Below are positions 1 to 17,687 of a stretch of 20,832 bases of DNA, in pieces. Source of the stretch: an uncultured archaeon. Lineage in GTDB: Archaea; Iainarchaeota; Iainarchaeia; Iainarchaeales; GCA-2688035. The notes below the pieces were generated by a model. That model was not told where the DNA came from. It did not search any database and saw only the letters and a list, made by a program, of their open reading frames with translations. The translations under genes were made by a program, and so were the position numbers. The DNA lies in assembly GCA_964354805.1 (NCBI GenBank), contig CAYHBD010000018.1, positions 1-20,832 on the forward strand. Direction: 5' to 3'. Numbering within the stretch: position 1 is the stretch's first letter; the number at the start of each line of letters is the position of its first letter.

Positions 1-360
1 TGGGAAAGAAAGGAATTCGGAATAAAAAATCATTGGGAAAGAAAGCTTTTCGCTTCGCGAAAAGAAGCCTTTTTCCGCCAGGAAAAAAGGGGTTGGCAGG
101 ACGTTTTCGCTTTGCGAATTCAATTAAAAATGCATCCAAAAGGGAATTATTTCATGGGCCCGTAGCTCAGCCTGGTAGAGCACCTGACTCTTAATCAGGG
201 TGTCGTGGGTTCGAATCCCATCGGGCTCGCTAAGCCTTTCTTTCTAAAGAAAGAAAGCCTTGGGAAAGAAAGAGTTGCTTTGCAATCCGACGTGCTCGGC
301 TTCGCCTCGCTTTTACTTTTTTCAGCGGAAGAAGCGCTGAGGAAAAATTCAGCGGAAGCG
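1..360. repeat. Cluster of short direct repeats and hairpins (REP-like) on both sides of tRNA-Lys
   Basis: TGGGAAAGAAAG at 1-12, 34-45 and 261-272. Hairpins: CTTTTCGC-TTC-GCGAAAAG (46-64), CCTTTTTCC-GCCA-GGAAAAAAGG (68-90), TTCGC-TTT-GCGAA (106-118), CTTTCTTTC-TAAA-GAAAGAAAG (236-257). TTCAGCGGAAG at 321-331 and 348-358. Confidence 0.65.
156..229 (+). tRNA. tRNA-Lys (anticodon CTT)
   Basis: Full cloverleaf: acceptor GGGCCCG/CGGGCTC, D-arm GCTC...GAGC, anticodon arm CCTGA-CTCTTAA-TCAGG (CTT at 190-192), T-loop TTCGAAT. CCA not encoded. Confidence 0.97.
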
Positions 361-408
361 CACTCTGTTTGCACTTTATTTAAAAGGCTCTCTTTTGTTT
401 TTTATTTT

Positions 409-1215
409 ATGGTTGTCACTTCTTATGGTGAGATCCCTGACTCGGAACTAATGTTTCCTTCATTTCCTTCATTACCCTCCCTAAAGTTGAATGTAAATAA
501 ATTAAGTCCGGGTCGTTTGCCAAGTAATTTAACGCCAGCTCTTGCGTATTTTATCGGATTCTTTTGTGGCGATGGAGGGCTTAAAGACATTCAAAAAACT
601 TTTTTAAAAACAAAACGGTTTGAGTATAAACTTATTATTGCAGATGAGTTTGAAATTCAAATTAAAATCATTCAAAAGGTCTTTTCTGGCTTGTTTGGAT
701 TTAAGCCCCCAATAAGATACGAACGAATCCTGAAAGGTGAGCACACATATTATTTAAACCCAACAAATAAATCAGTCTACCTTTTTCTGACAAAGGTTTT
801 TGGTTTTCCAAAAGGCCACAAATATGATGGTCTAAAAGTTCCACGCCTAATAATCAACTCAAATTCTAGTATTAAAAAATGGTTTATTCGCGGTGTGTTT
901 GATTCTGATGGAGACACAAGGGCGGTTGAAAAGGGATTTACCGCCCAATCCAGAGTGAAGCTTAGAATGAAAACCCATAGTTTTATTACAGGAATAAAAG
1001 CCCTGTTAGAAGACACCTACAACGTCTCCGTCAACGGTCCGTATTACGATAAAGGAGGGCAATCGAGCTATATCCAAGTTGAGCGATTCAACGATTTAAA
1101 GTCAATAAATAAACAGAAAATATTTATGCACCCAGTTAAAAGATGGAGATTGCAAAAGTCTTGTTCTAACCTAATTTCTTCTCATAGGGCACAACTTTTA
1201 AAACAATTCACTTAA
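409..1215 (+). CDS. Free-standing double-motif LAGLIDADG homing-endonuclease-like protein (268 aa)
   Basis: Two LAGLIDADG helices, LAYFIGFFCGDGG and WFIRGVFDSDGD. Start moved to ATG 409 because the ORF-track start (205) lies inside tRNA-Lys, and a TATA-like TTTATTTAAAA sits at 375-385. No intein splicing motifs. Confidence 0.85.
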   Translation: MVVTSYGEIPDSELMFPSFPSLPSLKLNVNKLSPGRLPSNLTPALAYFIGFFCGDGGLKDIQKTFLKTKRFEYKLIIADEFEIQIKIIQKVFSGLFGFKPPIRYERILKGEHTYYLNPTNKSVYLFLTKVFGFPKGHKYDGLKVPRLIINSNSSIKKWFIRGVFDSDGDTRAVEKGFTAQSRVKLRMKTHSFITGIKALLEDTYNVSVNGPYYDKGGQSSYIQVERFNDLKSINKQKIFMHPVKRWRLQKSCSNLISSHRAQLLKQFT

Positions 1216-1230
1216 ACACATTTTATGCAA

Positions 1231-1338
1231 GGGGCCATAGCTCAGCCTGAACGTGCCGTGGGTAAAACCAAGCGCGTGGCTTAGGAGAGCACACGGCTGA
1301 AGACCGTGGTGTCGCGGGTTCAAATCCCGCTGGCCCCA
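1231..1338 (+). tRNA. tRNA-Phe (anticodon GAA) with a 34-nt non-canonical intron (1250-1283) in the D-loop
   Basis: Acceptor GGGGCCA/TGGCCCC, anticodon arm CACGG-CTGAAGA-CCGTG (GAA at 1299-1301), T-arm GCGGG-TTCAAAT-CCCGC. Removing 1250-1283 restores the D-loop AGCCTG|GGA. Strict bulge-helix-bulge at the junctions. Confidence 0.93.
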
Positions 1339-2226: not shown

Positions 2227-2688
2227 GTGGTTGCATTGAATAAGAAAAAGTTCGGCAGGCCCGGCGTTGATTTTGTCGGTGTGGGCGTTGGGGTAATGGT
2301 GCGCAATGAAAAAGGCGAGTTCTTGCTTGGCCTACGGGCTGAGAATGCGGGGAATGAGCCAGGCAAGTGGTGTTTTCCGGGCGGCTGCTTGGAATTTGGC
2401 GAAACCTTGTTTGATTGTGCCAAAAGGGAAGCTAAAGAAGAAGCCGGCATTGAGGTTGAGTCTTTAAAGCTGGTCAAAGTGATTGACCACATTATTCCTG
2501 ATGAGAAACAGCACTGGGTTAATCCAATCATTGAGGCAAGGCTTGTTAAAGGAAAGCCAAGGGTTGTGGAGCCGCATAAGATAAAGGGATGGCAGTGGTT
2601 TTCTTTGCAAAATTTGCCGCAAAACCTTACACTAAACATGGTTGGTTTTTTTAAGGAAGTGCAAAATGGCAAAATTGAAATAGATTAA
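2227..2688 (+). CDS. Nudix hydrolase (MutT/NUDT15-like)
   Basis: Nudix box GGCLEFGETLFDCAKREAKEEAG, N-terminal GVGVGVMV strand, C-terminal EPHK..W.WF...LP. Confidence 0.93.
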   Translation: MVALNKKKFGRPGVDFVGVGVGVMVRNEKGEFLLGLRAENAGNEPGKWCFPGGCLEFGETLFDCAKREAKEEAGIEVESLKLVKVIDHIIPDEKQHWVNPIIEARLVKGKPRVVEPHKIKGWQWFSLQNLPQNLTLNMVGFFKEVQNGKIEID

Positions 2689-6562: not shown

Positions 6563-7303
6563 TTACACTTCGCCGTATTCTTCCTCTATTTTTCGCACAA
6601 CTATGCCTTTTTCCGTTATTTCAAGCGGGTGCAGGTCTTCTGAATGTTTTGTTGCCCTCATTTTCCTGATGTGCAGTGTCCTGTTGCTTGCTGTTCCCAC
6701 ACCCATATAGTGCAGTACAATTACGCCGTCAACAACGTATTCCTCTACTCCATATTTTCCGAATTTGTTTGCCCCCTCTTGTATCTCTGAAACAAGCAGG
6801 GATGTTACACCGCTTCTCATCAGCATGTAGCTTACTTTCAGCACTGCTTTCCTTACGTCGTTTGCGTTCTCAAAGTTGAATCCCAATGCTGGAATGCTGT
6901 CAATGACAACCCTTCTTGCATCAATTCTTTTAATTACCCTCATTATTTCAAGCAGTAGCTTGTCAACATCATATCCTGTAACAGGGAGGCTGAATTCTTC
7001 ATCGCTCGGCATTCCAAGCTTTGCAATGCTCCCGTCAACAACATTTATTGCGTTTTTTTCCTCCAGTTTCTTCAAATCCCATCCAAAGCGCAGGACATCC
7101 TCCCTGATTAGCTCAGGCCTTTCGTCAAGTGTAACATAAACCCCTGGCTCGTTGTAGTCTTTTGCGCCCTTGTAAATGTATTGGATTCCAAAAATTGTTT
7201 TTCCTGTTCCGCATGCGCCGCTTACCAGCACGCTTCTCCCTGCAGGAAAGCCGCCTTCAACCAGTTCATCCAATCCGTTAATTCCTGTTTTCACTCTCTC
7301 CAT
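6563..7303 (-). CDS. Single-domain KaiC/RAD55-like RecA-superfamily ATPase
   Basis: TGINGLDELVEGGFP, Walker A GACGTGKT, Walker B RVVIDS, EEYVVDGVI, IRKMRAT. Confidence 0.92.
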   Translation of the reverse strand: MERVKTGINGLDELVEGGFPAGRSVLVSGACGTGKTIFGIQYIYKGAKDYNEPGVYVTLDERPELIREDVLRFGWDLKKLEEKNAINVVDGSIAKLGMPSDEEFSLPVTGYDVDKLLLEIMRVIKRIDARRVVIDSIPALGFNFENANDVRKAVLKVSYMLMRSGVTSLLVSEIQEGANKFGKYGVEEYVVDGVIVLHYMGVGTASNRTLHIRKMRATKHSEDLHPLEITEKGIVVRKIEEEYGEV

Positions 7304-7499: not shown

Positions 7500-9341
7500 C
7501 TACGCCCTCTCCACTCTCAGGACAGCAGGCAATTGTTCGATTTTTTTAATTATGTTTTCCAGCTGCCCTATGTTGTTTATTTTCACATTGAATACGCATG
7601 TCGCTATATTGTTAGGGCTGGCTTTTGCGTTTGTCGAGTTTATTGCAATTTTTGCGCTCTCAAAAGCCCCCAATACTGCCGGCAGCAATCCGGCGTAATC
7701 TTTTGCCTGCACTTTTATGTCCACATTGTAATCTTTTTTAGCCAAATCCCATTCAACCTGCAGCAATTTGCCCCCTCTTGCTCCCTTGATGTTTTCGCAT
7801 TCTTTTCTGTGGATCGTTGTTTTTCTTTTCGTTGTCCTGAAGCCAATGATTTCGTCTCCGGGCAGGGGATTGCAGCATTTCGCAATCCTGACAGTTTCAT
7901 CAGCTGTTGTTGTCAGCATGGCCGGCTTCTTTTTCATCCTGCCCCTTATTTTTATTCCAAGGCACTGCCTTATTTTCGCTTGCGCTTTGGGTGATTTAAC
8001 AAAATTCAGCCAGTGCCTTTTCACCTGCACTTTTTTGCTAGGCATTATTTCAACTACGTCTGTGTTCTGCAGCTCGTAGTGCAGCTGGACAATTTTTCCG
8101 TTCACTTTTGCTCTCTCGCATTTCGTTCCCAAATCACTGTGCACTGCAAAAGCGAAATCAACAGGAGTTGAGTGCTCAGGCAGGACAATCACCTGCTTTT
8201 TTGGGGTGAAAACAAAGATTTTGTTTTGGCCAAGCTGCATTTTCAGGCCAGGTGCCAAGCTGCCCTTTGTTTTCCTGTGCCATTCAACCAATTGCCTTGC
8301 CCACGCAAGCTTTTTGTCAAAGTACTTGTCTTTCTCATATTGCTTGTATTGCCAGTGCGCCGCAATTCCGCTTTCATCCTCATAATGCATTTCCATTGTC
8401 CTGATCTGCACTTCCAATGGCATCTTATTCCATTGCACAACAGTGTGAATGCTTCTATAGCCGTTTTTCTTCGGATTTGCAATATAGTCACTGAATTTGT
8501 TTGGCACAAGCTTATAGTTTGAGTGCACTGCCCCAAGCACTTCATAGCATTCTTTGATTGAATTGCAGATTATCCTTATTCCAAGCAAATCAAATATGTC
8601 GCTGAATTTCCTGTTCTGTTCCACGATTTTTTTGTATATCGCATAAAAGTATTTTGCCCTGCCCTCAATCGTTACATCCTTTTTCTCTTTCTGCATCAAT
8701 GCGTTGAATTCAGCAATTGCTTCAGCCAGCTCTGCTTCCCTTTGCCCCCTTTTCTTTGCAACCGTCGCCTTTATTTTTTGGTATATGTCAGGATGCAAAA
8801 CCTTGAAAGCAGCGTCCTCAACCATGCCTTTCAAATCATACAAGCCAAGCTTATGGCAAATCGGTGAATAAATGTTCAATGCCGCAGCTGCATATTCATT
8901 CAATTGCTCTTTGCTGAATTCAGCTGGATTCTGCAAAGCATCAAGCCTTACCGCAATTTTTACAAAAATTGCCCTAATGTCTTTTGCTGTTGCCAGCAAA
9001 ACCTGGGACAGCAAACCATTGCCAATTTTAGCAAAGTTGCGTCCCTCTATTTCCAACATTTTCGCGTGCTCTGACAAAATTAATGCAACATCTTTTCCAC
9101 AGACAGCTTCAATCTTTTCAATCGGCGCGCAGTCAAATAACACTACATCATGTAATAATGTTGCAGCAACCGTTTCCTCGTCAAACCCGAATTCGCTCAA
9201 AATAGCAGCAGCCCTGAGGCTGTGTTCCAGTTTCTGTTTTCCCCATTCAGCATCCTTTGCCGTAAGCAATCGTTCAGCCAAAGCGTACGCTTTCTCAATC
9301 AGGGAAGCGCCATTGTTTCCCTGCTGCTTTATTATGCTCAT
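7500..9341 (-). CDS. relA: Long RelA/SpoT homolog, (p)ppGpp synthetase (degenerate HD, SYNTH, TGS, ZFD, ACT)
   Basis: SYNTH motifs GRAKYFYAIYKK, DLLGIRII, DYIANPKKNGYRSIHT, EVQIRTMEMH, GIAAHWQYK. TGS VFTPK...TPVDFAFAVHSD. ZFD AKCCNPLPGDEIIG...IHRKEC. C-terminal ACT domain. Start uncertain (ATG 9341, ATG 9371 or TTG 9383). Confidence 0.95.
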   Translation of the reverse strand: MSIIKQQGNNGASLIEKAYALAERLLTAKDAEWGKQKLEHSLRAAAILSEFGFDEETVAATLLHDVVLFDCAPIEKIEAVCGKDVALILSEHAKMLEIEGRNFAKIGNGLLSQVLLATAKDIRAIFVKIAVRLDALQNPAEFSKEQLNEYAAAALNIYSPICHKLGLYDLKGMVEDAAFKVLHPDIYQKIKATVAKKRGQREAELAEAIAEFNALMQKEKKDVTIEGRAKYFYAIYKKIVEQNRKFSDIFDLLGIRIICNSIKECYEVLGAVHSNYKLVPNKFSDYIANPKKNGYRSIHTVVQWNKMPLEVQIRTMEMHYEDESGIAAHWQYKQYEKDKYFDKKLAWARQLVEWHRKTKGSLAPGLKMQLGQNKIFVFTPKKQVIVLPEHSTPVDFAFAVHSDLGTKCERAKVNGKIVQLHYELQNTDVVEIMPSKKVQVKRHWLNFVKSPKAQAKIRQCLGIKIRGRMKKKPAMLTTTADETVRIAKCCNPLPGDEIIGFRTTKRKTTIHRKECENIKGARGGKLLQVEWDLAKKDYNVDIKVQAKDYAGLLPAVLGAFESAKIAINSTNAKASPNNIATCVFNVKINNIGQLENIIKKIEQLPAVLRVERA

Positions 9342-9439
9342 CAATCCAACAGTAGAGCCTTTCGGTCGCATGCCTATTCCCAAAAAAATATTGTTGTGAA
9401 AAAATATTTAAATACCTATTTTTCCATTTTTCAGGCAGC

Positions 9440-9540: not shown

Positions 9541-10224
9541 ATGCAATTGAAAAAACCAATCCTTTTCATAAACTTCAAAACATACAGTGAAGCAACAGCA
9601 GGCAATGCCATTGCTTTGGCGAAAAAAGCTGAAAAAGCGGCAAAAACCACAAAAGGTTCGGTTGCGCTTGTTGTCCAGGCACTTGACCTGCGCATGATTG
9701 CTGAAAGCGTTAAGCTGCCTGTTTTTGCGCAGCACATCGATCCAATTGACCCAGGAAGCCACACAGGGCATATCCTAGCAAGCGCAGTAAAGGCAGCAGG
9801 CGCTGTTGGCACTGTTTTAAACCACGCCGAGAACAAAAGGGACAATGTTTTTTTGAGCAAGGCAATTGAGAAAGCAAAGGCAGCAGGCCTGGTTGTAATG
9901 GCTTGCGCTGAAACAACAGAAAGGGCACAGCAGATCGCCGCTTTTCCAGTGCTACCTGATTTGATTGCTGTTGAGCCCCCGGAGCTGATTGGTGGTGACA
10001 TAAGCGTCAGCACTGCTAGGCCAGAGCTGATTACAGAGAGCGTTGCAGCAATCAAGGAAATCGCCCCCGAGATTGATGTTATTACAGGCGCAGGAATCAA
10101 AACAGGCGCTGATGTAAAAAAAGCAGTTGAATTAGGCACCTGTGGTGTTTTTGTTGCCTCAGGAATTATAAAGGCAGCCGACCACTATAAGGCAATAGCC
10201 GATCTTTTGCAGGGGTTTCGCTGA
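9541..10224 (+). CDS. tpiA: Triosephosphate isomerase, archaeal type
   Basis: INFKTY, AQHID, GSHTG, LNHAE, AVEPPELIG, GAGIKT, GVFVASG; 227 aa, typical of the short archaeal form. Confidence 0.97.
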   Translation: MQLKKPILFINFKTYSEATAGNAIALAKKAEKAAKTTKGSVALVVQALDLRMIAESVKLPVFAQHIDPIDPGSHTGHILASAVKAAGAVGTVLNHAENKRDNVFLSKAIEKAKAAGLVVMACAETTERAQQIAAFPVLPDLIAVEPPELIGGDISVSTARPELITESVAAIKEIAPEIDVITGAGIKTGADVKKAVELGTCGVFVASGIIKAADHYKAIADLLQGFR

Positions 10225-10565
10225 TGCCAGAAGAAATGCAGAGAAACATCCAGGTTGTTGACGCGCCAGACCTCGATTCTTTTGATTTAAGCAAAATAAA
10301 CAACGCGTTAGCTACCGCTTATGATAAACTGCAGAGAATAGCAAACAATGACATTTCAATGGTTCTGCATTTCAAGGAATACAATACCGCCGGGAGAAGG
10401 GAAAAATTCAGCATTCACCTGCGCTTGGCCTTTCCCGGAAACAACGTGGTCGCAAGCGCGGTAAGCTGGAAAGCGCCGGATGCAGTCCAGCAGGCGCTGC
10501 GCATTCTTGAAAGGGAAACAGTTGAATCAATAAAGAGAAAAGAAGAGAGAGGCAAAAGGCCCTGA
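10224..10565 (+). CDS. Ribosome hibernation promoting factor (HPF/RaiA/S30AE)-like protein
   Basis: 113 aa with a beta-alpha-beta-beta-beta-alpha pattern. C-terminal KFSIHLRLAFPGNNVVASAVSWKAPDAVQQALRILERE resembles the HPF fold. Translationally coupled to tpiA by a TGATG overlap. Confidence 0.65.
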   Translation: MPEEMQRNIQVVDAPDLDSFDLSKINNALATAYDKLQRIANNDISMVLHFKEYNTAGRREKFSIHLRLAFPGNNVVASAVSWKAPDAVQQALRILERETVESIKRKEERGKRP

Positions 10566-10566
10566 T

Positions 10567-10908
10567 TCAGCGTTTTTTCTTTTTCTTCGCTTTTGCAGGT
10601 TTTTTCTTTCCCTTGCCTGCTTTCTTCGCTTTTTTTGCAGGCTTCTTTTTTCCCTTCTTTGCCCTAGTTGCCTTTTTTCCAGCCTTCTTTTTTCCGCCTT
10701 TTTTCTTTTTCATTATCTTCTTCTTTACAGTCTTTTTCTTCGCCCCTGCTTTCGCCTTCTTCTTTCCCCGCAAAGAATCCCTTGTCTCCCTTGTCATAGT
10801 TGAAACAAACAAGTCGCTATCCGGGCCTTTTTCATCCCTCAATTCGCGACGCATTTCCGCAATTATTTCCGCAACACTTCTCTTCTGGTCAGTCATTTTA
10901 AAAGCCAT
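10567..10908 (-). CDS. Small protein with a long Lys/Ala/Gly-rich tail (histone H1-like, possibly nucleic-acid binding)
   Basis: N-terminal ~48-aa mixed-charge region, then a low-complexity tail (KKKAKAGAKKK...KKPAKKAKK...). Confidence 0.75.
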   Translation of the reverse strand: MAFKMTDQKRSVAEIIAEMRRELRDEKGPDSDLFVSTMTRETRDSLRGKKKAKAGAKKKTVKKKIMKKKKGGKKKAGKKATRAKKGKKKPAKKAKKAGKGKKKPAKAKKKKKR

Positions 10909-12064: not shown

Positions 12065-12124
12065 GTTCTCTTAATAGAAAATGCGCTTCTTTCTTTTAAC
12101 CCTTCTCAAATAGTTATGTATAAG

Positions 12125-12401
12125 TGTGGGCGTGCTTTGAAATGGGTTTAATCTGTTGAAAAAAGTTTTTTCACTGCTGCCGCTTGCTTTCGCTTCCCTC
12201 GAAGCATTCTTCGTTGTTGTTACCGTTGCTCTCTTCCGAGCCTGGCGGGTTTCGCAGCAGCAAAAAACCTAAGAGGACAAAAGCTCATCGCATGCAGCAA
12301 TGGCTTTTTTCATCAGCGTTAAACCGCTCCCAAAGCTTCGGTTCCAGCGTGAAGCGGATTTCTGGCAACAGAGGACCGCTGGCCCTCCAACCTAGCCCAC
12401 A
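12125..12401 (-). ncRNA. ffs: Archaeal SRP RNA (7S RNA)
   Basis: On the minus strand, 5' TGTGGGC pairs with 3' GCCCACA (helix 1). Alu-domain-like GGCTAGGTTGGAGGGCCAGCGGTCCTCTGT...AAATCCGCT. Helix 8 signature CGCCAGGCTCGGAAGAGAGCAACGG. TATA-like TTTAAAAA at 12430-12423. Confidence 0.9.
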
Positions 12402-12525
12402 AATAAACTGTCTTTAAAGCATTTTTTAAAGGTTTTTAATTGGGCGCATTTTCTTGTTAATTGCTGTTTTGGAATTTAAAGCATTTTTAAAAGTTTTTGT
12501 ATTATTATATATTGGGTGGTTTTGT

Positions 12526-13065: not shown

Positions 13066-15294
13066 TTATTCTTCCACGTCTTCCAGCCCGTTTTCCGTTA
13101 CCCTGAATATTGCTTCCCCGTCAGGCAGTGATGGCGAATCGACAAGCTTTGCAACCCTTTTGTCTTCCTTGCTTTTGCGCAGGTAAATCCTGGTTTTTGC
13201 GGCGTGGGCCAGTATTTCTCCGCCAACCGGCGCTGTCGGGTCTCCAAATAAAATGTCCGGCCTCTGCATTACCTGGTTTGTTACCAAAACAGCGATGTTG
13301 TTCATTTCCGCTAATTTTGCCAAAGTTCTTAGATGCTTGTTAAGTTTTTGCTGTCTGTCTGCCAGCATTCCTCTGCCAATAAATTCTGACCTAAACTGGG
13401 CTATCAGTGAGTCAACGATTAGCAGTTTGATGTTTTTTTCTTTTATCATTTCAGCTGCTTTCTCCGCCAGCAGCATCTGGTGGTCGGAGTTGTGGCAGCA
13501 AACTCCGCCAAAACCGGCAACAAAATTTTGGTACGGGGCGGACGCTGAGTTAATTGCAAAGTCGTATACCTTTTCTTTTGGATTGACTCTTATTCTTTCA
13601 ATTGCTTTTATTCTCGCAAATGCTAAATCATCCCATGTTGGAGTGTTTAGGTTTTGCTTGACCTTGTCAAGTTGTAGGGGATCGTTGATGTTCAAGCCAG
13701 CTGCTTCTATTCTGTAGGGCTGTTTCCAATGTTTTTTTGCATTCTTCAGTCGCAGTTTTTGAATAGCGGCAACTACTTTAAAACGCAGTAGCAACATTGT
13801 TGTGTCGTGGGCAAGCTTTTTACTTGAGGTAATGAAGATTAACCTGTTCTTTGGTCGTGAATTGGCATGGTAGCCATCGCCATCCCAGTATCCTTTAATA
13901 AAATGTTTTACTTTCTCTTTTGGCAATTTGAAAACAAAGCCAGGGACGGTTCTTTCCGGGCTTTTGGTTCCAATAGGCAGCTCAAAACAGTATTTTAGGA
14001 CAAGGCACAATAACCTGCTTGGAATTAAGAGCAATGCCCCATTTCTGCCTTTTATCTTATGCAAGAATGTCTTAACTAAAAACTTCTCTTCGATGATTCT
14101 TTTTGCTTTGGCGCATAATTCCTCTTCGCTGTTTATTCTAAGTCTAATCGGCCTCTCTTTATATTGGCTGTTGCCTTCAGCAATCCAAAAACCCAGCAGC
14201 CATAGAAGGTCATTATCCACTTTGATTCTGCTTGGGATTCTTGTCGCTTTTCTTTTGCCTGTGTGTTTTAGCTTGATGAATTCATTCTCTCCATCGCGCT
14301 CTATAACTATTTCTTTTTTTATCTCTTTTGGAAATTTATTGCAAGCAATGGCTAAATTGATTTCTTCAATGTCTTCTTCTGTCACTGGCAGGCAGCGGGG
14401 TATTGCTATATAGTCCCCTGTCTTAAGTAAAGATGCGTAATATGCCTCTGGCCTCATGTTGCCCTTTTCTCTTCTCACCGTTTTTCTCTTTTTTCCAAAC
14501 CTCTGCCCCCTAAATACACTGTGTGAGCCGGTGACAGTAAGTTCTCTGCCAAAAACTGTTTCGATTTTATACAGTTCATTGTTTCTTCCGATTGGGTGGC
14601 TTATAAGGGATGTTACCTTTGCAGGTACAATGCCCCCATTTTCGGGATTAAAAGAAAAAGCAACAATTTCATTATTCTGACGATTTTCTACAACATCTGC
14701 CATGTCAGTATTGTGAAATTCTGCATCATTTAAGATGCTAACTGGCTCGCTGCCTTGAAGGCTGTTGTAGGCTCTTGCCACATAAATGTTTTTCAGAACA
14801 TTTTCAGGATCAAGCTTCAAGTGCTTTGCAATCTGGATTATTCTCTCCGGCCTAAAGCTGTTTTCCGAGTCAATGTACAAGCAGTTTCCTTCCAGGCCGC
14901 CTTTTTCTTTTGGCAGTTGCACTGTTACCGCTGTTTCAAAGCACCATTGGGATTTCGAAGAGGCAAATTTTCCATAGATCTCGGTTATTGATTGCGTTTC
15001 AATGCCCCCGCCGATAAGTGAATCAACCTCTTTGCTCCCTGTTGTTATTTTTCCAACAAGCTTTCTTTTCTCTGCGAGCACGTCAGCCGTTTCAAATCCC
15101 ATCTCCAAAGCGTCTCTCGCTGCCTTGATTGCTTTCTCAGCTGTTCCCTCGCCCAAGCCTGCAACCTCAATCAATTCCATTGGAGAAGCAACAGCCATTG
15201 ATTCAAGCGTTTTATATCCTGCAGAAATTAGTTTCTCGCTTGCCTGCGGTCCGATTCCAGGCAGGTCCTGTATTGATTTTATCTCTTTTCCCAT
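13066..15294 (-). CDS. radA: DNA repair and recombination protein RadA, intein-containing (317-aa extein)
   Basis: N-terminal HhH (DLPGIGP), [76 protein letters not shown] before ATG 15294. Confidence 0.97.
13489..14763 (-). mobile_element. Intein in RadA (425 aa) with a LAGLIDADG homing endonuclease
   Basis: Junctions ARAYN|SLQGSEPV...GVCCHN|SDHQ. Block B VTGSHSVF, block F VYDF. LAGLIDADG helices LLGFWIAEG and [10 protein letters not shown]. Excision restores ARAYNSDHQ. Confidence 0.95.
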
Positions 15295-15505
15295 ACAAAT
15301 TCCTCCTTGCAAAAGCTAATGCATTTGACTGGTTGGCTTTGGATTTCCACGCAATCCTGGCATTGCCCTGCTTCTATTCAATTATACCGCGAATGTGCTT
15401 TAAAAAGGTTTTCAAAGAGCAGCCTTCCGCTGGTTCTGATAAATTCAATGCAATTTTGTTTATTTGTTTGCCAGCCGGTTGCTGGTTTTTCCTGCAGTCG
15501 TATGT

Positions 15506-15862
15506 TTATCCGCTTGCCAGCTGGATGTCCAGTGATTTGTATAAAGCCTGCAAATAAACCATTTGCTTTTCTTTGCTTTTTTTAATTAAGCTGTATTTCG
15601 CAAGCAATGCAACATCCCTGCTGACAGCCTCCTGCTTTCTTTTAAGCTCGCCAGCCAGTTCGCTTATTGTTTTCTTTTCAGCCTGGTGGCTGATTATGTG
15701 CATGAGCAGCTCCAATCTTTTCGGTGAAAGGATTTCATACAATTCGCTGCAGTTTTTCAGGTAAAGCGTGTGAGTGCCCAGCTCTGCTTTCGCCGGGTTA
15801 TAAAAAACGGTTTTCAAATCTTTGTTCATCACGCCACCAATCTTGATTACCAATCGCATCAT
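15506..15862 (-). CDS. wHTH transcriptional regulator (COG4190/HVO_A0114-like), putative antitoxin
   Basis: LYEILSPKRLELL...TISELAGELKRKQEAVSRDVALL pattern. ATG at 15862 or 15859. Confidence 0.75.
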   Translation of the reverse strand: MMRLVIKIGGVMNKDLKTVFYNPAKAELGTHTLYLKNCSELYEILSPKRLELLMHIISHQAEKKTISELAGELKRKQEAVSRDVALLAKYSLIKKSKEKQMVYLQALYKSLDIQLASG

Positions 15863-15881
15863 ATGGAACTGCCCCTTTATT

Positions 15882-15908
15882 ATTATATAACGCATTAAGT
15901 TATATAAT
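15882..15908. promoter_or_regulatory. Perfect 10-bp inverted repeat, putative operator
   Basis: ATTATATAAC-GCATTAA-GTTATATAAT, directly upstream of the HTH gene and overlapping TATA-like sequence. Confidence 0.6.
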
Positions 15909-15933
15909 CTTAACGGTTATGCCTTGCCCCAGC

Positions 15934-16263
15934 TTATTTTTCCAAAAATTTTGTCCTGTATACGCGCCAGTTCTTCCTGATGTTTTCAATGAATTCCTGC
16001 AGCGTTGTAAAATTCTTCTCCCTGTTCAAGTATCTCTTTTCAGGGCGCTTGAAGAAAAACTGGTGCACGTTTAGTGTTTCGTGCTTGCTGCAGTCAAACC
16101 GTATGACTTCAAATGTTTCACCATCAATTGTGGTTAAGTAAATCACTGCGAATTCCTCAACTTCCTTGAAGTCAGCTGAAAAAACAAACCTGACAAAAAG
16201 CTTGTTCTCTTTTTCGCTGTCAAGGTACTCGCTCCAGCTCTGCTGCCTGCCCTCTTCCACCAT
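15934..16263 (-). CDS. Small hypothetical protein resembling DUF6516/TumE-like putative toxins
   Basis: Pattern FAVIY....GETFEVIRFD.SKHE...VH. Lies upstream of the COG4190-like HTH gene. ATG at 16263 is about 30 nt after TTTTAATT. Confidence 0.5.
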   Translation of the reverse strand: MVEEGRQQSWSEYLDSEKENKLFVRFVFSADFKEVEEFAVIYLTTIDGETFEVIRFDCSKHETLNVHQFFFKRPEKRYLNREKNFTTLQEFIENIRKNWRVYRTKFLEK

Positions 16264-16373
16264 GCCGCGCCCGATATTATCCGGCAAAAGAGTCAATTAA
16301 AATGGCGCTGGAAGAGCAGCCTTCCGCTGGTCAAGTTGATTTTAATACAATTAGTAAATCGACGTTCGCTTTT

Positions 16374-17687
16374 TCACGCAAACTCCAATGAACGCACAAC
16401 AAATTCCAGCTCGTTGCTGAAAGCGTTTTCTTTTGCGTTCCCTATTGCTTTCAGTTGTTTTCCAACAAGCTTGTCCTGCAATTGCTGAATTATTTGCTCC
16501 GGGCCAATGCTTTCAATCAGCTCCCTCAACTGCTCTTTCTGCAGACCCATTAGTTTCTCAGCACTCAGCCCATACGCAACCGCGTTTATTTGGCTGCTTC
16601 CGTCATCCAAACGAACAGACAGCACTGCCCTGATGTCCTGTTCCTTTGAACCGCATTTTTCGCACTGCATTGCTGTTTCAGTGCGCTGCATTTTTGAGCC
16701 GCATTTTGCGCACACTGAATAGCGCAGCTGCCCCTGGTTTACCGCAACAACCGCTGCCTGCAATGCAACGAATTTTGTTGCTGCATCCAGTTCGCTTATT
16801 CTCCTGCTCTCTGTTTTGTCCTGCATCAGCTGCATTGCGCTTGGAATTGCGGCATCTGTTTTTGGGTTTGCAAGAATGCGCGCCCTCCATCCCAGGTGCA
16901 GTTCAATCCCCTGCAATCCTTCCTTTGTGTAGGCCCCCTCAAATTTCACTAAATCGTTTTCCTGCAGTTTTTCGGCTGCATCAACCAAATCATTCCAGGC
17001 AGTTGCCCTAATGGTGGCAGTTTCGTCCGCAACAAGAAAATTCATTACCCTTCCTTTTCCACTTTCCTTTTCAAACTCTGTTACCGGAAACAAGCGCAGT
17101 ACTCTTACAATTGTTGCAACATCATTCATTTCAGCCCTCAGTTCGCTGAGCTTTGACTGCCTTTCCTCTGCATTCGGCAAGCTTCTGCTATCAACATTTT
17201 TTGGCTCAACAACCATGCTGCCATTGTAGGAAAGGTTCAGCTGGGGCTTGTTGTTGAAGCTCTTGGCATAGCAATTGTGCAGCAGCAGAACGCTTCCTTT
17301 TTGCACGCCTGCTTCCTGCATTTTCCTTACATCATTGTGCCACAGGGTCAGCCTAGTTTCGCCTGAATCATCAGCAATAATAATATTGCACAGCGTGCCC
17401 TTTGTCCCGTTTCTCTCAAAGCTTTTCGGGCTGAAAACATGCATTACCCTTACAAGCAGATCAACATTCTGCATTCCGTCCTGCAGCTGCCCGATTGAAA
17501 CCCTGTGCATTTCCTGCTGCGTTGCAAGTTCAATTCCAAGTTCTCTTGCAACCATGAAAGCAGCGCCATCATCAGTAAGCAGGCCTGACAATTTGCTTTT
17601 CTTTGCTTTAATCAGTTGCTCGACTTCGCGCTTGCTTTTGCCGCTTGAAGAAATAATTTTTTCAATTAGCTCTGTTGCCTGCTGCAA
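16374..17687 (-). CDS. rpa: Replication protein A (multi-OB-fold ssDNA-binding protein with Zn finger)
   Basis: N-terminal GLLTDDGAAFMVARELG. OB folds with ADDSGETRLTLW, ADETATIRATAW and LDDGSSQI. Zn finger CAKC...CEKC. Confidence 0.92.
   Translation of the reverse strand: MQQATELIEKIISSSGKSKREVEQLIKAKKSKLSGLLTDDGAAFMVARELGIELATQQEMHRVSIGQLQDGMQNVDLLVRVMHVFSPKSFERNGTKGTLCNIIIADDSGETRLTLWHNDVRKMQEAGVQKGSVLLLHNCYAKSFNNKPQLNLSYNGSMVVEPKNVDSRSLPNAEERQSKLSELRAEMNDVATIVRVLRLFPVTEFEKESGKGRVMNFLVADETATIRATAWNDLVDAAEKLQENDLVKFEGAYTKEGLQGIELHLGWRARILANPKTDAAIPSAMQLMQDKTESRRISELDAATKFVALQAAVVAVNQGQLRYSVCAKCGSKMQRTETAMQCEKCGSKEQDIRAVLSVRLDDGSSQINAVAYGLSAEKLMGLQKEQLRELIESIGPEQIIQQLQDKLVGKQLKAIGNAKENAFSNELEFVVRSLEFA

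Follow-up and report, generated by a model that had tools for sequence, protein, structure and literature searches.

The window studied here is a stretch of 20,832 nucleotides, positions 1 to 20,832 of contig CAYHBD010000018.1 (assembly GCA_964354805.1), from a tiny uncultured archaeon of the Iainarchaeota (Diapherotrites, DPANN). Its reverse strand encodes a long RelA/SpoT homologue (RSH), which we consider together with P0122, a second long RSH from the same genome. The window protein belongs to a clade we call group A, P0122 belongs to group C, and group B holds short bifunctional relatives, apparently from DPANN archaea. Synthetase-only, hydrolase-only and bifunctional forms are written [hS], [Hs] and [HS]. 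The gene and its parts are the following.

7500..9371, reverse strand: long RSH gene of group A ("RelA-like", [hS]), 623 residues from the ATG at 9371 (open reading frame, Pfam, NCBIfam, alignment)
9401..9416, reverse strand: candidate promoter read by eye, a TATA-like A/T box about 35-40 nucleotides 5' of that ATG
8841..9290, reverse strand: predicted pseudo-hydrolase (HD_4) domain, fold kept, R44, E81, D82, D144 and N148 lost (HD_4 85-89 bits, motif table, AlphaFold2)
9135..9152, reverse strand: HDVVLF at the HDxxED position (alignment)
8334..8663, reverse strand: synthetase (RelA_SpoT) domain, all checked catalytic residues intact (136-139 bits, alignment, invariant columns)
8487..8498, reverse strand: KFSD at the RxKD/ExDD position (alignment)
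8046..8219, reverse strand: TGS domain with the conserved His in AVHSD (Pfam, alignment)
7893..8045, reverse strand: what is left of the helical (AH) domain, a single conserved helical stretch and then a low-confidence linker of about 20 residues (spacer length, AlphaFold2, faint PF19296)
7779..7892, reverse strand: zinc-finger domain (ZFD/RIS), CCxP...H...C, invariant in the clade (alignment)
7506..7736, reverse strand: ACT/RRM domain (ACT_4 62.5 bits; beta-alpha-beta-beta-alpha-beta in the AlphaFold2 model)

The reading frame runs without a stop from 7500 to 9383 on the reverse strand. There are three candidate starts, TTG 9383, ATG 9371 and ATG 9341, the last of which was chosen in the first-pass annotation. 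We argue that ATG 9371 is more likely than ATG 9341, since a homologue that is 93% identical to the window protein (P0002) is 623 residues long and about 25 residues precede the first conserved helix in the aligned relatives.

Pfam places HD_4 (85.2 bits), RelA_SpoT (135.8), TGS (63.1) and ACT_4 (62.5) in that order along the protein, each above its cut-off, which is the domain sequence of the long RSH superfamily. The E-values are far beyond chance (1e-39 for RelA_SpoT, 5e-24 for HD_4 and 4e-150 for TIGR00691). The spoT_relA subfamily model of NCBIfam, TIGR00691, is barely passed, at 501.3 bits against a cut-off of 499.2. A small alarmone synthetase (SAS) or toxSAS is ruled out, as this is a five-domain protein and its neighbours are a KaiC-like ATPase and a TIM, not a toxin-antitoxin operon. 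Nor does it belong with the bifunctional Rel [HS] class, since it has neither a complete HD site nor RXKD.

Motifs were read by alignment to Mycobacterium smegmatis Rel and Escherichia coli RelA, and in a MAFFT alignment of 236 homologues. The residue numbers (R44, H53, H77, D78, E81, D82, D144 and N148) follow RelSeq numbering. The AHxxQxRxSGxPY block is LLTAKDAEWGKQK in the window protein, with R44 replaced by Ala. HDxxED reads HDVVLF, which replaces E81 with Leu and D82 with Phe. KLADRLHN reads KIAVRLDA, which replaces D144 with Val and N148 with Ala. In the numbering of the window protein itself (P0001) the replacements of R44, D144 and N148 are A45, V145 and A149. Five of the eight hydrolase residues are therefore lost, and H53, H77 and D78 alone remain. 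HD activity in RelA and Rel requires the residues that are missing here. Every synthetase residue that was checked is present (GRxK..K, DxxGxR, the G-loop Tyr and His, and EVQIRT). In the alignment the AVHSD His falls in one column with the IHSD His of E. coli RelA. The ligands of the zinc finger are intact, as is the ACT domain. The alignments thus bear out the first-pass annotation, which had called the hydrolase consensus eroded and the synthetase motifs and TGS His intact. By every residue test the window enzyme is supported as a synthetase-only [hS] long RSH.

The same pattern runs through the whole of group A, about 70 proteins of 605-632 residues from metagenome-assembled genomes annotated as Diapherotrites, Micrarchaeota or simply archaeon. 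Among 69 members D144 is kept in one, N148 in five, D82 in six and E81 in seven, and the replacements vary from member to member. The checked synthetase residues are kept in all 69, and the zinc-finger ligands and TGS His are also kept across the group. On average, members share 38% pairwise identity in the HD domain, as against 56% in the synthetase, 62% in TGS and 63% in the ZFD. In the same comparison the HD domain of bacterial Rel is as conserved as the remainder of the protein. These identities indicate that constraint has been relaxed on the HD domain only in group A. An AlphaFold2 model of the window protein, built from an alignment of 84 relatives, has a mean pLDDT (predicted local distance difference test) of 81.5 and a pTM (predicted template modelling score) of 0.70. 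It keeps the all-helical HD fold at a pLDDT of about 90. The drift of the group A HD is the mark of a pseudo-domain retained for its fold, as in RelA.

The region between TGS and the zinc finger is also unusual. From the end of TGS to the zinc-finger CC there are 56 residues, and the same alignment gives 133-199 in full-length bacterial Rel, most having 135-160. The helical (AH/HEL) domain of long RSHs, about 140 residues in Rel, is therefore absent as such, and the remark in the first-pass annotation that this region is much shorter than in bacterial Rel was correct. PF19296 (AH/RIS) matches faintly and covers only profile positions 96-169, the zinc-finger half. After TGS the model has helices at 452-456 and 461-471, then no secondary structure at 472-493, with pLDDT below 50 at 476-486. 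The zinc finger and ACT fold come next. A short spacer is also found in the bifunctional proteins of group B (64-71 residues), so the short helical region is not tied to loss of the hydrolase.

It is worth asking whether this protein is simply a RelA. Among solved relatives, bifunctional M. smegmatis Rel comes first, at 364 bits against 321 for E. coli RelA. The proteobacterial RelA equivalog (NF008124) gives 350.1 bits against a cut-off of 728, and the proteobacterial SpoT equivalog 366 against 947. Groups A, B and C are each monophyletic, with SH-aLRT (Shimodaira-Hasegawa-like approximate likelihood ratio test) values of 97-100 in the full-length tree. Since the RelA equivalog falls below its cut-off, the closest solved structure is that of a bifunctional Rel and the clade is separately archaeal, the data support a window protein that is not an orthologue of proteobacterial RelA but sits in an archaeal clade of its own. 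The resemblance to E. coli-type RelA [hS] (PDB 5iqr, 5kpv) is nonetheless extensive. Both have a pseudo-HD with lost residues, an intact synthetase, the TGS His, a ZFD and an ACT domain, and both share their genome with a separate long RSH that carries the hydrolase. The window protein differs in having KFSD and not EXDD, in lacking the helical domain and in its archaeal host. The first-pass annotation had proposed a separately derived RelA-like monofunctional enzyme, and the family models, the clade and all residue tests agree with that proposal. The [hS] state is, as the alignment reads, common to the whole of group A and derived independently of proteobacterial RelA.

A monofunctional synthetase was expected in the first-pass annotation to need a separate hydrolase, with Mesh1 or another small alarmone hydrolase (SAH) suggested. 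A hydrolase is present, but it is of a different kind. The assembly of the window genome (G000; 1.38 Mb, 49 contigs, 88.5% complete) contains exactly two RelA_SpoT and two HD_4 loci by profile search. The second locus is the following.

Contig C32 of G000, about 15290-16978 (L003:1411-3099), forward strand: P0122, second long RSH, 562 residues (profile matches, alignment)

P0122 matches HD_4 at 138-141 bits, against 85-89 for the window protein, and RelA_SpoT at only 79-80 bits. Its HD motifs are HQRESKPFH, HDED and DKHN, and all eight hydrolase residues are intact. Its synthetase motifs are lost: GRxK has become IDEK, DxxGxR DTLVLK and EVQIRT KIRIAT, so that the Gly and Arg of GRxK, the Arg of DxxGxR and the Glu, Gln and Arg of EVQIRT are all replaced. 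It lacks the CCxP zinc finger and the TGS His, and about 38 residues join TGS to ACT. All 26 group C proteins have an intact HD and have lost the synthetase residues. P0122 is slightly below the cut-off of TIGR00691 (487.3 bits against 499.2). It is far below that of proteobacterial SpoT (NF008303, 356 bits against 947), so it is not placed as a SpoT orthologue, and it does not have the full C-terminal domains with a ZFD. The 88.5% complete genome yielded no stand-alone SAH or SAS. These matches support a second long RSH of type [Hs], not a Mesh1/SAH, as the partner of the window synthetase. The P0122 gene lies directly downstream of an argininosuccinate-lyase-like gene (ArgH). We do not read this as a functional link, since the adjacency is kept within one family (f1) only.

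The distribution of both types was examined by RelA_SpoT and HD_4 profile searches of 215 genomes of the same phylum. RelA_SpoT matches occur in 162 genomes and HD_4 matches in 143. By our own count from the HD_4 table there are two HD_4 loci in about 76 genomes, among them 33 of the 58 that are at least 90% complete. In the genomes for which both tables were compared, the hydrolase locus with the highest score lies apart from the highest-scoring synthetase locus. The former score roughly 110-160 bits in open frames mostly of about 480-670 residues. The latter score 120-157 bits in open frames of about 605-660 residues, and their own HD_4 scores are only about 68-119 bits. Two-locus genomes were fetched for closer reading (17 genomes, 14 family codes). 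Each of them has one [hS] copy with the ZFD and TGS His and one [Hs] copy without the ZFD; the TGS His is kept in 17/17 group A copies and lost in 15/17 group C copies. With the window genome included, the reciprocal pattern holds in 18 of 18 genomes checked.

Over these 18 genomes, pairwise identity among the A copies rises and falls with that among the C copies (r = 0.69), and none of 5000 Mantel permutations gave a value as high. The gene order around the group A gene, LysRS-KaiC-RSH-TIM, is conserved in many families. Reciprocal pairs, co-divergence and conserved gene order together imply that the A and C genes are old co-inherited residents. A recent horizontal transfer of the window copy is rejected, as synteny and co-divergence are both conserved. 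A search for related loci with the window protein alone gave no match. An alignment-based search returned mostly bacterial Rel, with two archaeal records named, Candidatus Iainarchaeum and a Diapherotrites metagenome-assembled genome, at 41-42% identity. It must be noted that genome G177 has an extra RelA_SpoT match (C4:148478-148795, 111 bits) in an open frame of only 206 residues, which may be a small alarmone synthetase.

One can imagine two routes to such a pair, a duplication or two acquisitions. In the full-length tree A and C are joined with an SH-aLRT of 85. In a tree of the N-terminal domains plus TGS the groups are again monophyletic (A 99/98, C 100/100, B 96/77), with A next to B and C with the bacteria (91/85). 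The approximately unbiased test does not reject A and C as one clade (p = 0.29). Both duplication and separate acquisition of the hydrolase paralogue are compatible with these trees. The ancestor of A was likely a B-like bifunctional Rel that already had no helical domain, because A has the short spacer and the zinc finger in common with B. Group B (for example P0120, "Nanoarchaeota archaeon") has the spacer, the ZFD and ACT, but it differs in keeping all HD residues and a conserved EFDD (12/16). In A the HD site is lost and the motif is drifting.

Bifunctional Rel [HS] provides the best solved relatives of both paralogues (Bacillus subtilis, 6yxa; M. smegmatis, 8fr8; Streptococcus equisimilis, 1vj7). 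Domain order and the length of the Core are the same as in the archaeal proteins. These enzymes differ in keeping both sites, RXKD and a helical region of about 140 residues. A close functional parallel to the pair is found in the Moraxellaceae, where RelA[hS] and SpoT[Hs] (Acinetobacter baumannii SpoT, PDB 7qpr) have a fully reciprocal split and the dead domains are kept as pseudo-domains (PMC9974481). The archaeal pair would differ in its independent origin. A. baumannii SpoT keeps all its C-terminal domains, whereas the archaeal hydrolase paralogue is without the helical and zinc-finger domains and has mostly lost the TGS His. P0122 scores 168 bits to 7qpr against 353 bits to B. subtilis Rel.

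We think it probable that the window gene and P0122 are a make-and-break pair of the RelA/SpoT kind, with an origin separate from that of the proteobacterial pair and vertical inheritance in Iainarchaeota. The window enzyme would be a monofunctional synthetase of (p)ppGpp (guanosine tetra- and pentaphosphate), RelA-like in action, with HD as a structural pseudo-hydrolase. Its sensor half (TGS with its CCA-contacting His, zinc finger and ACT) appears to be under strong constraint, with the helical domain cut to a stub. Deacylated tRNA on the archaeal ribosome would switch synthesis on through TGS, ZFD and ACT. The product would be (p)ppGpp, and P0122 with its complete Mn-dependent HD site would remove it. 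That A still reads deacylated tRNA on the ribosome is suggested by the selective retention of the TGS His, ZFD and ACT in A, as against the absence of the ZFD and the usual loss of the TGS His in C. This is the weakest step, since the helical domain is missing, and we consider it about evenly balanced. A genuine stringent response in Iainarchaeota, with a RelA-like minimal TGS-ZFD-ACT sensor and a SpoT-like reset, is a possibility that we put forward tentatively.

Several observations weigh against this scenario. A search for RNA runs that contain the window gene listed none. The missing domain is the one that, in ribosome-bound RelA, sits between TGS and ZFD, and binding to the ribosome may be altered or lost. 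In bacteria, proteobacterial RelA with its long disordered loops is set apart from SpoT[Hs], where these loops are short (PMC9974481), but loop length does not separate the two archaeal paralogues. In group A the alpha6-alpha7 loop has a median of 20 residues and the Core loop one of 44, the same as in groups B and C. Bacterial Rel has 20 and 45, so group A is Rel-like and not extended as in RelA. There are also genomes with a synthetase-type RSH only and no second HD_4 locus: G083 (one contig, 99% complete), G150 (two contigs, 97%), G027 (one contig, 94%) and G124 (three contigs). The closed example is the following.

G083:C1:1004636-1005559 (L039): synthetase-type-only relative in a closed genome

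The hydrolase partner is therefore dispensable, or replaced by something else, in G083, G150 and G027.

Another line of reasoning keeps the synthetase but takes it off the ribosome. The window enzyme would then be a synthetase-only RSH that is not activated by ribosomes or tRNA and is controlled by an ACT ligand, by self-inhibition or by a partner such as the downstream KaiC-like ATPase. The stretch from TGS to the zinc finger fits this, with only 56 residues of which about 20 are predicted to be disordered, and so do the Rel-like loop lengths. A KaiC-like gene adjoins the group A gene in 15 fetched loci from many families. However, the adjacency may be mere inherited gene order, given that the LysRS-KaiC-RSH-TIM block is conserved in its entirety. 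TGS and ZFD are the readers of tRNA and ribosome in RelA, and they are the most conserved parts of the clade. Across 84 aligned proteins of groups A and B the TGS His and the four Zn ligands never vary; the ZFD is absent in all hydrolase-only paralogues and the TGS His is lost in most. We regard control away from the ribosome as unlikely.

A different product is another possibility, as the first-pass annotation had suspected from KFSD. Candidates are (pp)pApp, pGpp, or pyrophosphorylation of the tRNA CCA end as in some toxSAS. The RXKD/EXDD motif affects the response to Mg2+ and the choice between GDP and GTP, and swaps alter this preference and give pGpp in Rel (PMC2666561). The alignment agrees with the first reading of KFSD as matching neither class, and the EXDD charge reversal of the RelA class is absent. 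A search of the 88.5% complete genome gave no Ppx/GppA homologue, which one could also count in favour. Yet this position is hypervariable in group A, with 32 different tetrapeptides in 69 proteins (QFTD in 11, HFDD in five and KFSD in four), against RFKD in 91 of 114 proteins of the bacterial set. KFSD as a new specificity class is rejected on this ground, and there is no conserved basis for an altered product preference. The other residues of the nucleotide site are those of long RSHs that make (p)ppGpp, the co-inherited partner keeps all eight (p)ppGpp hydrolase residues, and the domain architecture fits a long RSH and not the single domain of a toxSAS encoded in a toxin-antitoxin operon. 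A different product is very improbable. That the HD domain is still a hydrolase through a remodelled site, leaving the enzyme bifunctional, is scarcely credible: three of the four metal ligands remain (H53, H77 and D78), but the fourth, D144, is Val, E81, D82, R44 and N148 are all replaced, the replacements differ between relatives as expected of drift and not of a new site, and an intact dedicated hydrolase paralogue is co-inherited.

Our preferred reading remains the make-and-break pair, and it can be set against the literature. No archaeal long RSH was found by Atkinson et al. (2011; PMC3153485). The literature continues to treat Archaea as organisms that lack (p)ppGpp and a stringent response (PMC3153485; PMC8646023; PMC13728122), and a paper of October 2026 once more calls the system absent there (PMC13728122). 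A 2021 survey reported RelA/SpoT in 69% of Diapherotrites, which it presumed to be a bacterial transfer, and it included no residue analysis (PMC8407392). The presence of RelA/SpoT in DPANN is therefore already known (PMC8407392). Our literature search found no published description of the reciprocal pair or of a form without the helical domain. What is added here is the nature of the predicted partner: a full long RSH whose defect mirrors that of the window protein, the two being inherited together across the phylum. This gives a defined two-gene pair for testing whether an archaeon uses the bacterial starvation signal. If active, the pair would extend alarmone signalling to Archaea, show the helical domain to be dispensable for a RelA sensor and provide a second, independent subfunctionalisation of the RelA/SpoT type for comparison with Proteobacteria. 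If the stringent-response reading is true, it would reveal the first (p)ppGpp alarmone cycle among Archaea, with the RelA/SpoT division of labour reinvented independently.

The window is of archaeal origin, and its remainder encodes a class I lysyl-tRNA synthetase, the KaiC-type ATPase, the short TIM and an archaeal signal recognition particle RNA (12124-12402). An RPA-like protein and an open reading frame resembling GGGP synthase were also read from the translations. The other features are listed below.

6563-7303, reverse strand: KaiC-family ATPase (Pfam, 258 bits), 196 nucleotides downstream of the RSH gene on the same strand
10224-10565, forward strand: 113-residue open reading frame overlapping the TIM stop codon, sub-threshold for Ribosomal_S30AE/HPF (E 0.013, 16.6 bits against a cut-off of 23.7)
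10567-10908, reverse strand: 113-residue open reading frame, extremely Lys/Ala-rich, no Pfam match, N-terminal part conserved in two family-f1 relatives
13066-15312, reverse strand: RadA gene, apparently interrupted at ARAYNS/DHQ by an intein of about 430 residues with LAGLIDADG-type motifs (translation only)
156-230, forward strand: tRNA-Lys(CTT)
205-1215, forward strand: 336-residue open reading frame, weak LAGLIDADG similarity
1275-1332, forward strand: second, partial tRNA match (Rfam only, 38.5 bits)
2227-2688, forward strand: NUDIX hydrolase (83 bits), about 5 kb from the RSH gene

KaiC and RSH may be adjacent as members of an operon, or the gene order may simply be conserved. Degradation of (p)ppGpp is known from some bacterial Nudix enzymes; no sign of a link between the NUDIX hydrolase at 2227-2688 and the RSH gene was found. 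The features from 156 to 1332 may represent a homing endonuclease gene that sits between tRNA genes, or else a tRNA that is split or carries an intron. The open reading frame at 10224-10565 may encode a hibernation-factor-like protein. Nine fetched loci keep it in this place, following TIM and divergent from the RSH gene.

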